Source of the DNA: a virus
Taxonomy: Duplodnaviria > Heunggongvirae > Uroviricota > Caudoviricetes
Length of the DNA stretch: 4,369 nucleotides
Direction: 5' to 3' (one strand)
IMG/VR virus record: IMGVR_UViG_2703719355_000024
Shown: positions 1 through 4,369 of the stretch, piece by piece
How positions within the stretch are numbered: the stretch's first letter is position 1
How the letters are laid out: every line of letters begins with the position of its first letter
Made by a program: the position numbers and the translations under genes
Notes under the pieces: generated by a model
Database searches by the model: none
The model's input: the letters and a program-made list of their open reading frames with translations, nothing else
What the model was told of the DNA's origin: nothing

Positions 1-354
1 TTGTCTGGCGCTTTTCCAACCGCTGGCGCTATCGCAGGGTTCTCTGGAGGAGGTGTTATTGGAGCAATAGTTGGTGGCGCTGCAGGTGGAGCAATTGATG
101 CGATAGCAAAAGGATCGATAGCGAAATTATCCGCAACCAGAAGTGGTCGTTACGCTATTGAAAAGGCTGTTCAAGAGGCAACAAAGGCAGTTAAGGTTGG
201 GGCAAGTGATGGCGCATTAGCGGCGGCAGAACGCAGATTTATGGCAAATAAGGCCGCCGTAAAAGCAATACGCGAGGCACTAGGAAACGAAGAGTTCCAG
301 CGTTTAGCAAGGGCTGGAATTGTGGCATCGCTAAGCGGAATGGCACAGGAGTAA
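1..354 (+). CDS. 3' portion of a CDS that probably starts upstream of the window (5'-partial); hypothetical protein with a Gly/Ala-rich hydrophobic segment followed by an Ala/Lys/Glu-rich helical tail; by position possibly the last virion/ejection-protein gene of a P22-like late operon
   Basis: Open frame from base 1 to TAA at 352-354. Position 1 is TTG with no upstream context, so it is most likely an internal codon. Residues 5-35 (AFPTAGAIAGFSGGGVIGAIVGGAAGGAIDAIA) form a glycine-zipper-like hydrophobic stretch. The ejection-protein assignment is inference from synteny only. Confidence 0.5.
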   Translation: MSGAFPTAGAIAGFSGGGVIGAIVGGAAGGAIDAIAKGSIAKLSATRSGRYAIEKAVQEATKAVKVGASDGALAAAERRFMANKAAVKAIREALGNEEFQRLARAGIVASLSGMAQE

Positions 355-684
355 TTAGTCATCCATGGATGGATTGAGCTTATCTCGTGTTGATGTGGCA
401 ATTTTACCAACATTTTTCAACCAAGATTTTAAGAAGGATATGTCGTCCTTAATATCATGAATATCCTCATTCTTTATACGATCAACCTTATCCTCTAGGC
501 TCTCTATAGAACGCTCAATGCTAGACAGAGAGACTTTTAAGTCTCCTTGCTCACGTTCCAGTGAGGATTTGAGAGCACAATATTCGTTTTCTAGAATTCC
601 TATTTTTTTTGTTAGAGAGTGCATTCGATACTCATACACCAAACCAGAAACGACTAATGCAGCCAACAGAAACCATTCAAGCAC
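355..684 (-). CDS. hypothetical small membrane-anchored coiled-coil protein (109 aa, GTG start)
   Basis: Minus-strand ORF with GTG start at 684-682, preceded by a strong Shine-Dalgarno (minus strand AAGGAGG, 5-nt spacer). N-terminal hydrophobic segment LEWFLLAALVVSGLVY, then a charged heptad-like region (LENEYCALKSSLEREQGDLKVSLSSIERSIESLEDKVDRIKNE). Stop TAA is the complement of 355-357. Confidence 0.55.
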   Translation of the reverse strand: MLEWFLLAALVVSGLVYEYRMHSLTKKIGILENEYCALKSSLEREQGDLKVSLSSIERSIESLEDKVDRIKNEDIHDIKDDISFLKSWLKNVGKIATSTRDKLNPSMDD

Positions 685-825
685 ACCAACCTCCTTAGTT
701 TTGCGCAGGATACCAGATGATAATGTATTGGTGGAGTGGTGTGTGAAAACGTGTCAACGACAAACCATCCACAACTTGGACGAATGATTTAGCAAAAAGT
801 GCTATTTTTGGTGTTTGGTGTCATA

Positions 826-848
826 GAAAAGTGAATAGCTCACTTTTC
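826..848. repeat. perfect 9-bp inverted repeat GAAAAGTGA-N5-TCACTTTTC in the intergenic region; candidate operator or RNA hairpin
   Basis: Read directly: gaaaagtga (826-834), atagc (835-839), tcacttttc (840-848). No T-run follows on either strand, so it is not a classic intrinsic terminator. Confidence 0.6.
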
Positions 849-975
849 AACATTGCATGAAACTTGCAGGAAATGTGACATTACCTTATAGGTAACTTCG
901 GCGAAAATGCAGTAAATGTGAAACGTAATGGTTTAAACATGTCGCTAAAGTGGTTGTAAGTTAGCCTCCGAAGGA

Positions 976-1052
976 TTGCTGATAGCTTTGTTATAGTATT
1001 AAATGACATTTGACATAGTTGGATACTTAGCTGTGGCTATCAAGATGGAGGT
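976..1052 (+). promoter_or_regulatory. putative promoter/leader region for the Panacea operon (elements not confidently resolved)
   Basis: TTGACA at 1010-1015 inside a tandem TGACAT-T-TGACAT motif (1004-1016), but no good -10 at 17 +/- 1 bp. Alternative weak pair TTGCTG (976-981)-N17-TTAAAT (999-1004). SD GGAGG at 1047-1051. Confidence 0.3.
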
Positions 1053-1058
1053 GTGTTC

Positions 1059-1502
1059 ATGCTTACTTGTTTTGATGTCGCCGACTACTTCCTGTCGCGG
1101 TGTGACGAGGATAGCGGTGACACAATCTCTAATTTAAAATTACAAAAGCTTGTTTACTATGCTCAGGGTTTTTCATTGGCGTTGCTTGGCGAGCCTCTTT
1201 TTCAGAATAAGATGGAAGCTTGGATGCATGGCCCTGTTGTCCCTGAGCTTTATCGCCGTTATAAACAATATGGTAATGGCGCTATCCCTTCTCCAGAGTC
1301 TTTTGATGCTGAAAAATTCAGCGAAGAACAGTTAGAGCTATTAGAAGAAGTCTGGGATGTTTTTGGGCAATTTTCTGCCTGGAAACTGAGGAACATGACA
1401 CACGAAGAGTCACCATGGAGATCAAACTATATTGAGGGTGTTGGTGGTTCTGAAATTAGCTCTAAGGAGATGGCAGAGTACTTTGCAACTCGGATTAACT
1501 AA
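1059..1502 (+). CDS. Panacea-domain protein (DUF4065 / SocA-like antitoxin domain, GepA-type phage-associated protein); putative antitoxin or sensor component
   Basis: ATG at 1059 with GGAGG 7 nt upstream; the GTG at 1053 given in the ORF track sits on the SD and is less likely. The segment LKLQKLVYYAQGFSLALLGEPLFQNKMEAWMHGPVVPELYRRYKQYG matches the DUF4065/Panacea core pattern as I recall it. Stop TAA at 1500-1502. Confidence 0.75.
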   Translation: MLTCFDVADYFLSRCDEDSGDTISNLKLQKLVYYAQGFSLALLGEPLFQNKMEAWMHGPVVPELYRRYKQYGNGAIPSPESFDAEKFSEEQLELLEEVWDVFGQFSAWKLRNMTHEESPWRSNYIEGVGGSEISSKEMAEYFATRIN

Positions 1503-1506
1503 CGAG

Positions 1507-1926
1507 ATGGCAAGAAAATCTAAAAGGATTATCCCCCCTGCTGAATCTACAGGTAAGTTAAAGTTAGGGCCGCAGTCAGGGGGGAATTCAGATCAAAAGA
1601 AACCGAAATTTTCATTCTGTTACATCCAAAGCTCTCACTGCATAACGAAATGCCAAAAAGATGAGAAAGCTGGCTTAGCTGATAAATTATACAGATTAAG
1701 TCAACTAACATGGGCAGAGATTAAGCAGCAAGGTAGGCATAAGCTTGGATTTGAGAAGATTGCAAGGGGTGCCATTAAAGCAGGTATCCCCAGTCATATA
1801 ACGGAAGACGTAGATCATTTCTTGGCTTTTAGATTTGATGATTTGAAAGCCATGGTTGGTTATCGTCTTGGATCGACATTTTTTGTTATATGGCTTGATA
1901 GAGAGTTCAACCTATACAAGCACTAA
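1507..1926 (+). CDS. hypothetical 139-aa protein, candidate toxin/effector partner of the Panacea-domain protein
   Basis: ATG at 1507 lies 4 nt after the upstream stop, in the same orientation, with no strong SD of its own, suggesting translational coupling. The ORF-track start at 1432 is a TTG inside the upstream gene. Basic low-complexity N-terminus (MARKSKRIIPPAESTGKLKLGPQSGGNSDQKKPK), a Cys/His cluster (FSFCYIQSSHCITKC), and a beta-rich C-terminus. No family recognised. An intrinsic terminator follows immediately. Confidence 0.7.
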   Translation: MARKSKRIIPPAESTGKLKLGPQSGGNSDQKKPKFSFCYIQSSHCITKCQKDEKAGLADKLYRLSQLTWAEIKQQGRHKLGFEKIARGAIKAGIPSHITEDVDHFLAFRFDDLKAMVGYRLGSTFFVIWLDREFNLYKH

Positions 1927-1953
1927 TAAAACCCACCGTCAGGTGGGTTTTTT
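1927..1953. terminator. bidirectional rho-independent terminator shared by the convergent Panacea operon and the repressor gene
   Basis: AAAA (1927-1930), stem ACCCACC (1931-1937), loop GTCA (1938-1941), stem GGTGGGT (1942-1948), then a T-run from 1949. The flanking A-tract and T-tract allow function in both directions. The repressor stop codon (complement of 1939-1941) lies in the loop. Confidence 0.8.
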
Positions 1954-2748
1954 GTTGTCTCTGCTATCGAGAAGGAAGTTCAATTTTTCCTCTATTTCTT
2001 TAAGCTTGAGATAAAGTAATTCTTTCTCGGTTCTGGCATTTTCAGCTATAAAATCCTCTGCTTCATCCAACGTATTTTCGCTATCTCTTATCGAGTGCAG
2101 CGGGGTTTTTAACAAATCAATTTGTGCATGAATAGCTACAGCAATGATTTCCATATCATCACTGATTTCCAACATCGGGTACGCTGGATTAAGTGGTTTT
2201 AAGTAAAAATGCCCCTGATCTCTTATTAGTTGCTTGAAGGTGGTTTCAAATCCATTGCAACACAGCACGAAGTCTCCTGGTTTGGCCTGAATATCCGGAT
2301 CAAAGCAGACAGTGTAGCCATCCGGGAAGCTAATTCCAGAAGATGATGTCATTGAATGCCCTGTAACCACTAACGCAAATGCATTATTCCCGGCACATAA
2401 CGGGGCAGGGATAAAGTCTATAGGAGTAATGTCGCTTGGAAATTTTCCTCCTTTAGGATAGGAATTTGATAGGTGCGAGAATACGGGGATCTCTCTGACT
2501 GTTACCGTTCTCTGTATTGAGCTAACATCAGGCCCCTCACCAACACCGATAGCTAACCATTCTGTTGTTGTCCCTAAAGTAGCAGCCAGATTTCGTAACA
2601 CAGCGTCCCTTGGCTTGGAATCTCCTGCTTCATAGGCTGCTATTTGCCTTCTTACGATGCCAACCTTATCAGCTAACTGACCTTGAGTCAGCCCCATGGC
2701 AGCGCGAGCGATAGATATACGCTTAGGAAATGAATCGTCAAATTTCAT
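1939..2748 (-). CDS. lambda CI / P22 C2-type repressor: N-terminal HTH (XRE/Cro-C1 type) plus C-terminal S24 (LexA-like) peptidase domain, with an additional ~55-residue charged helical C-terminal extension
   Basis: Start taken as ATG at 2748-2746 with SD AAGGA 6 nt upstream; the ORF-track start at 2805 has no SD and would overlap the candidate divergent promoter. HTH: ISIARAAMGLTQGQLADKVGIVRRQIAAYEAG. S24 domain: GHSM (Ser nucleophile) and TFKQLIRDQGHFYLKPLNPAYPMLE, very close to lambda CI [26 protein letters not shown] and P22 C2 [24 protein letters not shown] as recalled from memory. Confidence 0.85.
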   Translation of the reverse strand: MKFDDSFPKRISIARAAMGLTQGQLADKVGIVRRQIAAYEAGDSKPRDAVLRNLAATLGTTTEWLAIGVGEGPDVSSIQRTVTVREIPVFSHLSNSYPKGGKFPSDITPIDFIPAPLCAGNNAFALVVTGHSMTSSSGISFPDGYTVCFDPDIQAKPGDFVLCCNGFETTFKQLIRDQGHFYLKPLNPAYPMLEISDDMEIIAVAIHAQIDLLKTPLHSIRDSENTLDEAEDFIAENARTEKELLYLKLKEIEEKLNFLLDSRDNKKPT

Positions 2749-2770
2749 ATGTGATCCTTTAAAGTTCACA

Positions 2771-2799
2771 TTGACACATTCAAATTCATGGCAAATAAT
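2771..2799 (+). promoter_or_regulatory. candidate sigma70 promoter for the arc-like/antirepressor operon (Pant analogue)
   Basis: TTGACA at 2771-2776, 17-bp spacer, AATAAT at 2794-2799, about 50 bp upstream of the arc-like start. Flanked by repeated TGTGA/TCACA half-sites that could be operators. Confidence 0.45.
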
Positions 2800-2848
2800 T
2801 GGCATGAGTTTGTGATGATGTGTGATTCAAAAATACATGAGGTGAATA

Positions 2849-3022
2849 ATGGAACAGAAGAAAAAAGATATCAAGCCTATCTCCTACCGCCCAAGTGCTG
2901 AAGTGCGTGAGTTTTTGGAAGGTAACGCAGCTAAAAGCTACCGCTCAATTCAGGGAATGCTTGATTTCTTTATGGCAAGAGTGATGGAGATGGAGAGGAA
3001 AGGTGAAATTGTCATCCATTAA
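2849..3022 (+). CDS. arc: Arc-like ribbon-helix-helix transcriptional repressor (57 aa)
   Basis: Not in the supplied ORF track (below its length cutoff). ATG at 2849 with GAGG at 2839-2842; stop TAA at 3020-3022. Protein [57 protein letters not shown] aligns by eye with P22 Arc as recalled: a basic beta-strand (FNLRWPREV vs ISYRPSAEV), the RS motif, and RVME in helix B. Sits directly upstream of the antirepressor-like gene, as in P22 immI. Confidence 0.7.
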
Positions 3023-3093
3023 AAATGTTGAAGCCCCAACTGCTGCAACAGTCAGGGCTTCGGTATCAACAAAACTTACGAGGTATTATTGAT

Positions 3094-4023
3094 ATGTCAA
3101 GCTTAGCAAAGTCAACTGTAAATTGCACTAACAGCATCACCATTTCAGACGTCAAGATTCATATGGATTCAGAGGGGCGTTACTCGCTTAATGACCTGCA
3201 CAAGGCATCAGGTAAAGAGCGTCGTCATGAGCCTGCTGCGTGGCTGCGACTAGAACAAACCAATGAGTTAGTTCAAGAAATTCTAAATACACAGATGTGT
3301 GTATTTAAAAATGGCGATAACTTTAATTCTTCAGAATCGCAGATTAAGAAGCCAATGGACTCTAAGAAGGGTCGCTACGGAGGCACCTACGTGTGCAAGG
3401 AGCTTGTTTACTCCTACGCCATGTGGATTAGCGCAGCCTTTGCGCTGAAGGTTATCCGTGCATATGACGCAATGGTTACTACCACACAAGAGAGGAAGGC
3501 TATTGGCGGTAAAACTTCAGTAGCTGAACGCACACCGCTACGCGATGCAGTAAACATGCTGGTAGGAAAGAAAGGGCTTCGCTATGACGATGCATACAAT
3601 ATGGTTCATCAGCGTTTTGGTATTGACAGCATTGATGAACTTTCAATTGAACAAATCCCGCTGGCCGTAGAGTACATCCACAGGGTAGTGCTTGAAGGTG
3701 AGTTCATCGGCAAACAAGAGAAGAAAACCAACGAGCTTTCTGCAAAAGAAGCAAACAGCCTTGTATGGTTATGGGATTATGCCAACCGCTCACAGGCATT
3801 ATTCCGCGAATTGTATCCGGCGCTAAAACAAATTCAATCGAACTATTCCTGCAGATGCTACGACTACGGTCATGAGTTCTCGTATGTTATTGGAATGGCG
3901 AGAGACGTTTTAATAAACCACACACGAGATGTTGATATCAATGAGCCAGACGGACCAACGAATCTTTCCGCATGGATGAGACTTAAGAATAAAGAATTAC
4001 CTCCTTCAGTACATAACTACTGA
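3094..4023 (+). CDS. KilA-N domain protein, putative antirepressor (functional analogue of P22 Ant)
   Basis: ATG at 3094 with GAGG at 3080-3083. The in-frame ATG at 3025, 2 nt after the arc-like stop, has no SD but cannot be excluded. N-terminal region has KilA-N hallmarks ([53 protein letters not shown]). Followed by a strong intrinsic terminator. Position between the arc-like gene and the tailspike matches P22 ant. Confidence 0.75.
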
Positions 4024-4041
4024 CAGATAACCAACGCAACG

Positions 4042-4065
4042 ACCCAGCTTCGGCTGGGTTTTTTT
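4042..4065 (+). terminator. rho-independent terminator downstream of the antirepressor-like gene
   Basis: Stem ACCCAGC (4042-4048), loop TTCG (4049-4052), stem GCTGGGT (4053-4059), then a T-run to 4065. Confidence 0.8.
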
Positions 4066-4123
4066 ATGCCCAAAATTCACCGTAGCCATGCTGCGGCGAT
4101 TCCTTGTATCTGGAGCAAATTAA

Positions 4124-4369
4124 ATGACAGACATTACAGCCAATGTTGTGGTAAGCATGCCTTCGCAACTCTTCACTATGGCGCGTTCTTTTAAAGCCGT
4201 AGCCAATGGCAAAATTTATATCGGAAAAATTGACACTGACCCGGTAAATCCTGAAAACCAGATTCAGGTTTATGTAGAGAACGAAGACGGTTCTCACGTT
4301 CCTGTTTCGCAACCAATCATCATTAACGCTGCTCGTTATGGTGAGTTTGATGACTACCCGCTGAAGTGA
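4124..4369 (+). CDS. tailspike protein N-terminal head-binding region (P22 gp9-like); only 81 codons before an in-frame stop at the window edge, so possibly truncated, remnant, or a module junction
   Basis: ATG at 4124 with GGAG at 4112-4115. The first ~70 residues ([70 protein letters not shown]) match the P22 tailspike N-terminus as I recall it. The sequence then diverges ([11 protein letters not shown]) and ends at TGA 4367-4369. Confidence 0.8.

Follow-up and report, generated by a model that had tools for sequence, protein, structure and literature searches.

How does a phage gene that begins as a tailspike gene come to end after 81 codons? The window (the whole stretch of viral DNA that was analysed, 4,369 nucleotides) closes with an ATG-started open reading frame of 81 codons on the plus strand, 4124-4369, the TGA of which forms its final three bases. 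The original prediction was that the product resembles a P22 tailspike for about 70 residues, as far as IINAA, and then switches abruptly and stops. Profile and structure matches bear this out, and the switch can be placed to the base: divergence follows directly after IINAA, with 4333 as the last base of codon 70 and a C at 4334 as the first foreign one. For comparison we used, among others, two intact P22-like prophages at the sbcB site (L003, from E. coli O20:H12, and L005), an O157:H7 lambdoid prophage (L004) and a decayed element (L016). The features at the right end of the window are these:

4041 to 4066, plus strand: intrinsic terminator (GC-rich hairpin and T-run), the conserved P22-type ant/gene 9 terminator, from a terminator scan
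4112 to 4115, plus strand: ribosome-binding site GGAG, 8 nt 5' of the tailspike ATG, read from the sequence
4124 to 4333, plus strand: tailspike-derived part, codons 1-70, about the first 62% of the head-binding domain
4317 to 4339, plus strand: junction patch in which the parental sequences are alike, from three-way alignments
4334 to 4369, plus strand: end of a HumD/UmuD-like gene, its last 11 codons and TGA, fused in frame, with an identical end in L003, L004 and L016

The first 70 residues were aligned to the tailspikes of P22 and its relatives. The head-binding domain of Pfam, PF09008, matched the product with an E-value of 8.7e-40, at profile positions 1-73 of 113 only. The best match in the PDB was Sf6 gp14 (7sg7, E 4.9e-39), and the P22 gp9 constructs (2vky, 2vnl, 2xc1 and 1lkt) followed with E-values of 1e-30 to 5e-32; every one of the PDB alignments ended at residue 70-71, and the 1lkt chain was covered at positions 1-66 of its 104. 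Counted from these alignments, 65 of 70 residues (93%) are identical to Sf6 gp14 and 55 of 69 (80%) to P22 gp9. Some 29 PHROG tailspike families were also matched, each only at its first 72-76 positions, although the profiles run to 343-954 positions. At the DNA level, identity to the intact L003 tailspike gene is 95% and reaches 4339. Judged by these alignments, the tailspike part belongs to the P22 family and lies nearer to the Sf6/HK620 type than to P22 proper.

The genomic place of the stub is also that of a P22-like tailspike gene. It lies behind the immI/ant moron, 3' of ant and its terminator, in the layout of the P22-like late region found in epsilon34, CUS-3 and L003. The stretch homologous to 4041-4066 carries a 'terminator' annotation in the epsilon34, HK620 and Emek records, and the intact L003 tailspike is preceded by the same upstream sequence as the stub. 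No promoter-like site was found between the terminator and the tailspike ATG. The likeness to the tailspikes of P22 (gp9), Sf6 (gp14), HK620 (gp9) and Sf101, which join PF09008 to a beta-helix receptor-binding domain, is confined to residues 1-70 and to this position directly after ant and its terminator. In contrast to them, the stub is without head-binding positions 74-113, the linker and the whole receptor-binding or enzymatic domain, and its final 11 residues come from an unrelated gene. A complete head-binding domain takes up about residues 1-115 (113 profile positions), and the intact L003 tailspike covers all of PF09008, 1-113, as against 1-73 in the stub; the expectation that 81 residues would hold no complete head-binding domain was therefore correct. 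The C-terminal receptor-binding/depolymerase domain is missing altogether, the frame ending at codon 81.

We then located the window in its source genome. It corresponds, base for base, to positions 2065937-2070305 of the chromosome of E. coli Z1323CEC0010 (NZ_CP148445.1; positions 5102-9470 of the extracted locus L001), and it is also fully identical to a contig of assembly GCA_958335555.1 (L009). Its first base is the first base of a called gene, for a 117-aa fragment of a gp16-type DNA-transfer protein, and its last base is the last base of the called 81-aa gene. The stop codon falls at the window end because the window was cut on gene-call boundaries; the genome goes on, as a complete chromosome of 5.24 Mb. 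Thus the remark that the frame stops exactly where the window does holds for the TGA, but neither the sequence nor a contig ends there. The same is true of the suggestion of a truncated remnant at the edge of a prophage or of a contig: the contig edge has to be given up, since the stub sits inside a complete chromosome, whereas the prophage edge stands, att being 86 bp away. PGAP annotates L001 9225-9440 as 'phage tailspike protein; incomplete; partial in the middle of a contig; missing C-terminus', and by this flag the stub is already known as a pseudogene.

The prophage DNA that follows the TGA amounts to 86 bp (L001 9471-9556). The sequence from L001 9557 onward, with the start of sbcB, belongs to the core chromosome and occurs in 5416 of 5426 complete E. 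coli genomes, as against only 574 for the 121 bp that precede this point, the 30 post-junction bases of the reading frame included. The core DNA begins within sbcB, on the minus strand, and the start of that gene, ATGATGAATGACGGTAAGCAA, is at L001 ~9603. In unoccupied genomes, the features annotated beneath this match are sbcB and dacD, and in L001 dacD starts 344 bp past the window end. Lambdoid Stx2c prophages are documented to insert in sbcB (PMC8309913). Here the prophage has broken the gene, which encodes exonuclease I, after codon 16, leaving the residual frame MMNDGKQQSTFLFHDY followed by AQHP and a stop (L001 9557-9603). A receptor-binding domain downstream, in another frame or gene, had been envisaged; we looked for such a module 3' of the stub in every frame and gene and found none, only the phage arm, the sbcB 5' end and dacD.

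The origin of the last 11 codons became apparent from the prophage arms of relatives. The post-junction bases, CGTTATGGTGAGTTTGATGACTACCCGCTGAAGTGA, end the phage arm in L003, L005, L004 and L016. In these arms, the frame that ends at this TGA reads ...SPD(A/V)(I/M)F(L/V)VITYIIN(E/D)(V/A) and continues with the same last 11 residues; in L005, PGAP calls a pseudogene here, of a 'HumD family translesion DNA polymerase', with the very same stop. The reconstructed peptide of the remnant matched NCBIfam NF051876 at positions 89-128 of 129 (E 1e-13), with 44-51 bits against a curated cut-off of 120, a low score being expected for a fragment; a Pfam scan of the 48-residue peptide found nothing. By tblastn, the peptide matches humD of P1 and P7 as well as gene 26 of N15, which is UmuD-like; the Stx2c phage 2851 and related Stx phages have identical remnants at their extreme right end, and the P22-like phage Sf101 has a copy with 66% identity. 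Codons 71-81 with their stop correspond to the C-terminal end of the HumD/UmuD-like genes (humD of P1 and P7, gene 26 of N15, NF051876), and among decayed copies in phages of the sbcB site this end is identical to that of L003 and L016 and nearly identical to that of phage 2851 and Sf101. On sequence grounds, codons 71-81 are assigned as the native C-terminus of a decayed HumD/UmuD-like gene that adjoins attP/attR in sbcB-integrating phages. Proteins of the HumD/UmuD family, of about 129-140 residues, have the S24 fold with its catalytic Ser-Lys dyad; compared with them, the stub retains 11 codons only, and both the S24 peptidase fold and the catalytic residues are absent from the reading frame. 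The 81-codon frame is a fusion of tailspike codons 1-70 and the last 11 codons of a decayed HumD-like gene.

Does such a fusion reflect the natural exchange of receptor-binding modules? The original prediction placed the break at the known exchange point of P22-like tailspikes, and N-terminal tailspike modules are indeed common to otherwise unrelated tailspikes, as seen by tblastn, in the PHROG matches and in the epsilon34 genome paper, which describes a conserved head-binding domain at residues 1-115 followed by unrelated C-terminal parts (PMC2629481). The first 200 residues of the intact L003 tailspike were compared by tblastn with all phage records, of which 186 matched and 60, spread across the ranking, were listed. 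Among the records listed, homology ended at residues 115-182 and mostly at 115-128 (P22 126, Sf6 118, epsilon34 124, Sf101 128, APSE 115), the most distant matches of those listed ended at residues 100-105, and in none of the 60 of 186 did it end near residue 70. An exchange at the end of the head-binding domain would put the break at about residues 110-128; the stub breaks at 70, a point that lies 45-55 residues inside the domain and off the natural module border at 115-128. The placement at an exchange point was thus mistaken, and no module follows. A working tailspike that had merely changed its receptor-binding module, with the receptor part lying downstream or in another frame, would also have to be reconciled with an 11-residue end that belongs to a HumD-family gene and with a downstream region in which the 86 bp of arm, the sbcB 5' end and dacD leave no tailspike-like sequence; we give this reading practically no weight.

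The base-level structure of the junction points elsewhere. In the window, the patch consists of the perfect 12-mer TCATCATTAACG (4317-4328), C at 4329, TGCT at 4330-4333, C at 4334 and GTTAT at 4335-4339, after which comes GG. Intact tailspikes read ...CAA TCATCATTAACG C TGCT G GTTAT CC... at this place, and the L016 arm reads ...CAT TCATCATTAACG A TGCT C GTTAT GG.... The 12-mer is found both in the intact tailspikes (L003 4654, L005 3264) and in the L016 arm (5004), so that the parents have in common a perfect 12-bp direct repeat within a patch in which 21 of 23 bases are alike, in the same reading register. Tailspike-specific bases in the window reach as far as 4329, and arm-specific ones set in at 4334; the BLAST alignment to the tailspike overlaps the one to the arm at 4318-4339. 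A short direct repeat at the site of a deletion is what slippage or annealing-type illegitimate recombination ordinarily leaves behind. Because the two breakpoints share the 12-bp perfect repeat (21/23 bases), a short-homology deletion would explain the junction. The strength of the repeat depends on the type of the parental arm, since the 12-bp repeat would require a parent with an arm of the L016 type; an arm of the L003 type matches the tailspike patch at 16 of 22 positions with no shared base at the crossover. An earlier placement of the crossover, made with the L003 arm alone and without microhomology, was revised, since L004, L016 and a second allele described below show an arm with the perfect 12-bp repeat.

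Both parental patches encode I-I-N-x-A-x-Y. Since the fusion is in frame and both repeats encode this motif, gene callers report a clean 81-aa frame. The tailspike (P-I-I-I-N-A-A-G-Y) and the unrelated end of the HumD-like gene (T-F-I-I-N-D-A-R-Y) are alike at 21 of 23 nucleotides in the same frame (window 4317-4339, L016 5004-5026), a likeness that we take as a coincidence that supplied the substrate for the deletion.

A second allele, in L002 and two sister genomes, has A at 4329 in place of the C of the window, which changes alanine 69 to aspartate (A69D). As base 4329 is A in that allele, its crossover falls inside the 12-mer. Over window positions 3047-4369, base 4329 is the sole difference between the two alleles. 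They could in principle stem from two independent events at the same patch; because they differ at 4329 only, one deletion, followed by a base change or accompanied by short-patch repair of the recombination intermediate, is the more economical history, and we favour such a single event.

The distribution of the junction bears on whether it could be an artefact. It is present in six complete genomes. Gene callers report the exact 81-aa product (CUA54327.1, 'putative tail spike protein') on 109 contigs and the D69 variant on 47; these roughly 156 contigs come from NCBI, ENA and Logan assemblies, metagenome assemblies included. In 10 of 10 contexts inspected, the stub adjoins the same arm and the sbcB 5' end. 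The exact 32-base junction had 0 matches in JGI metagenome contigs, a null that is uninformative because ENA and Logan assemblies contain it. More than 150 independent contigs with the same sequence show that the junction is no artefact. The idea of a frameshift or assembly error is excluded by these 109 and 47 contigs and by the nature of the post-junction DNA, which is the identifiable end of a different gene and not a shifted tailspike frame. That the stop codon falls on the last base of the window might have suggested a sequencing, assembly or frameshift artefact, or a frame cut by a window or contig edge; with the junction in six complete genomes and about 156 contigs of unrelated projects, and the window inside a 5.24-Mb chromosome, the chance of this is vanishingly small.

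The 4369-bp phage part shows 0-1 mismatches against seven other assemblies of the same architecture (99.95-100% identical), whereas an adjacent stretch of chromosome of equal length (L001 9557-13925) shows 28-80 mismatches in those seven. A near-invariant phage part beside a diverged flank implies that the prophage end has spread horizontally, and recently, among E. coli lineages; presumably the block moved among the diverged backgrounds together with the lambdoid prophage. A second chromosomal site of the stub, on the pphA/rsmF side (L006 and L013), was considered, since it would have meant that the junction moves to new att sites, and was rejected, because in these loci too the stub is followed by the same arm, then the sbcB 5' end and the region upstream of dacD. 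In them (L006 7247-8030, L013 4255-4650) the sequence breaks at the first dacD codons and is joined to a tail-fibre-assembly/Collar/invertase segment beside pphA and rsmF; this rearrangement is a large deletion or inversion between prophage regions that is later than the junction.

Intact relatives indicate what lay between the two halves of the fusion. In them the tailspike is followed by an O-antigen acyltransferase, then by the HumD remnant and att. L003 has, at this chromosomal site, Arc, Arc, Ant, a 674-aa tailspike, the acyltransferase, the HumD remnant, the arm and dacD, and the isolated P22-like phage Sf101 has the tailspike, an O-acetyltransferase (oac), the HumD remnant, attP and integrase. 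The stub is shorter than the intact homologues at the locus, and both parental flanks are identifiable. The missing segment, from tailspike codon 70 to the last 11 HumD codons, would measure 3329 bp in a parent like L003 and 3176 bp in one like Sf101. What was deleted, and exactly how much, is modelled on these two relatives because no parent was recovered that combines an intact tailspike with the identical ant and N-terminal tailspike sequence.

These findings argue for the following origin. The ancestor would have been the right end of a P22-like prophage in sbcB, with ant, its terminator, the tailspike, an O-antigen-modifying acyltransferase, the decayed HumD-like gene and attR. A deletion of ~3.2-3.3 kb between short direct repeats, one in tailspike codons 65-72 and the other lying 11 codons before the stop of the HumD remnant, may have arisen by slippage or by annealing at the repeat. 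It would have taken out the final third of the head-binding domain together with all of the receptor-binding module and the acyltransferase, so that codon 70 of the tailspike now reads in frame into the final 11 codons and the TGA of the HumD-like gene. Today the remnant is a passenger in a lambdoid prophage (gpJ, Lom, tail fibre, NleG), at the end that is nearer to att, and with that prophage it has spread among diverged E. coli backgrounds. With high confidence, then, we regard the stub as a non-functional chimeric remnant of a ~3.2-3.3 kb short-repeat deletion at the end of a P22-like prophage in sbcB. It resembles other prophage remnants formed at short direct repeats and flagged as pseudogenes by PGAP in its truncation, its 12-bp repeat junction, its pseudogene annotation and the presence of a second deletion, at a 14-bp repeat; nothing essential sets it apart from them, except that its fusion happens to be in frame.

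The second deletion lies in the rest of the P22-like remnant, which was annotated by Pfam, PHROGs, PGAP on L001 and gene calls in ten other contigs:

1 to 4123, no single strand: rest of the P22-like remnant, made up of the features below
1 to 354: gp16-type DNA-transfer protein, C-terminal fragment
355 to 684, minus strand: 109-aa open reading frame
1053 to 1926, plus strand: Panacea-domain gene and its 139-aa partner
1939 to 2805, minus strand: CI/LexA-like repressor (HTH_3 and Peptidase_S24)
2849 to 3022: 57-aa open reading frame (phrog_10182)
3025 to 4023, plus strand: Ant antirepressor (KilA-N and P22_AR_C)

A 1560-bp block with NleG, the gp16 fragment and the 109-aa frame (L001 4278-5837, window 1-736) is found in L001-type loci, is absent from L002, L006 and L014, and is flanked by the 14-bp direct repeat TGGTGTGTGAAAAC. 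This indel is the second short-repeat deletion in the same remnant, 3.6 kb from the stub junction. The immI-type region between the Panacea pair and ant (1939-3022) is mosaic, its stretch from about 1954 to 3022 occurring in at least three versions between conserved flanks; L002 and L006/L013 carry two other versions there, with Arc/Mnt-family genes and near-identical flanks. The Panacea pair itself is kept in all variant loci. Its Panacea-domain gene (SocA-like antitoxin; PF13274, E 2e-24) overlaps the following frame of 139-164 aa, which is without a Pfam family and matches phrog_8366 (unknown function) and, weakly, the PADLOC family NsnC (E 6e-6); the pair resembles a PanA-type antitoxin and a toxin that is so far uncharacterised. 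The Ant frame has 332 codons from the first ATG, PGAP and other callers starting 23 codons later (309 aa), and its residues 111-159 give a weak PADLOC match to PDC-S22 (E 7e-11).

The remnant lies to the right of the lambdoid tail genes (gpJ, Lom, tail fibre, NleG), and this setting allows another history for the same junction. A lambdoid prophage in sbcB could have recombined illegitimately with an infecting or tandem P22-like phage, with one crossover, on the right, in the 23-bp patch of the HumD remnant that the lambdoid phage itself carried, and another, on the left, near gene 16, so that the P22-like immI segment and the 5' end of the tailspike gene were inserted directly. Because both lambdoid and P22-like phages of the sbcB site have the HumD-remnant arm, as the lambdoid prophage L004 (O157) and the Stx2c phage 2851 do at their right ends, the two substrates would co-occur and a tandem or recombinant origin is plausible. 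The place of the remnant inside a lambdoid prophage, right of NleG, fits this account, and its interior, with no fewer than three mosaic versions, speaks for ongoing recombination with P22-like phages. Moreover, the best-fitting arms, both for the D69 allele and for the bases after the junction, belong to the lambdoid/L016 type (IINDARY), not of the type of the intact P22-like prophage L003. However, the P22-like phage Sf101 also has an arm of the IINDARY type, and arm type therefore cannot tell the two histories apart; and a capture would need two separate illegitimate crossovers, as against successive simple deletions. We regard it as an unlikely alternative to a deletion within a P22-like prophage end.

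Whatever the history, the 81-aa product most likely has no function. Its start codon, ribosome-binding site and reading frame are intact, the frame is unbroken on ~156 contigs, and the mobile element that carries the stub has candidate defence or toxin-antitoxin genes next to it (the Panacea domain), all of which might be expected if the product were made and active, for example if this head-binding fragment hampered the attachment of tailspikes in co-resident or superinfecting P22-like phages. The unbroken frame is uninformative about selection because the whole 4.4-kb block has only 0-1 substitutions, and the only variant seen is non-synonymous, at the junction. The head-binding domain functions as an interlocked trimer, and the product covers just 73 of its 113 profile positions. 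The gene is also preceded by an intrinsic terminator, no promoter-like site separates the two, and the remnant contains neither the P22-type late promoter nor the antiterminator; a PADLOC search returned no family match to the stub. In P22, tailspike expression depends on late transcripts that read through the ant moron (PMC2629481, citing Adams et al. 1985). The stub might conceivably be expressed by read-through from the lambdoid late operon during induction and act as a dominant-negative decoy against tailspike trimerisation or attachment in competing P22-like phages, a scenario that strikes us as far-fetched. A functional product of any kind seems to us very improbable.

If the decoy scenario were true, the stub would be a small inter-phage competition factor on a mobile lambdoid prophage and of real interest. 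As matters stand, it is an ordinary prophage pseudogene the origin of which can be reconstructed to the base, and its significance lies mainly in annotation hygiene: what is called a 'putative tail spike protein' (CUA54327.1 and relatives) is two fused gene fragments, which predictions of host range or serotype specificity based on tailspikes should disregard. The locus is also a worked example of prophage decay, with two deletions in a 4.4-kb remnant, each at a direct repeat of 12-14 bp, and it shows how a P22-like immI remnant, as the cargo of a lambdoid prophage, can persist and spread among E. coli lineages.
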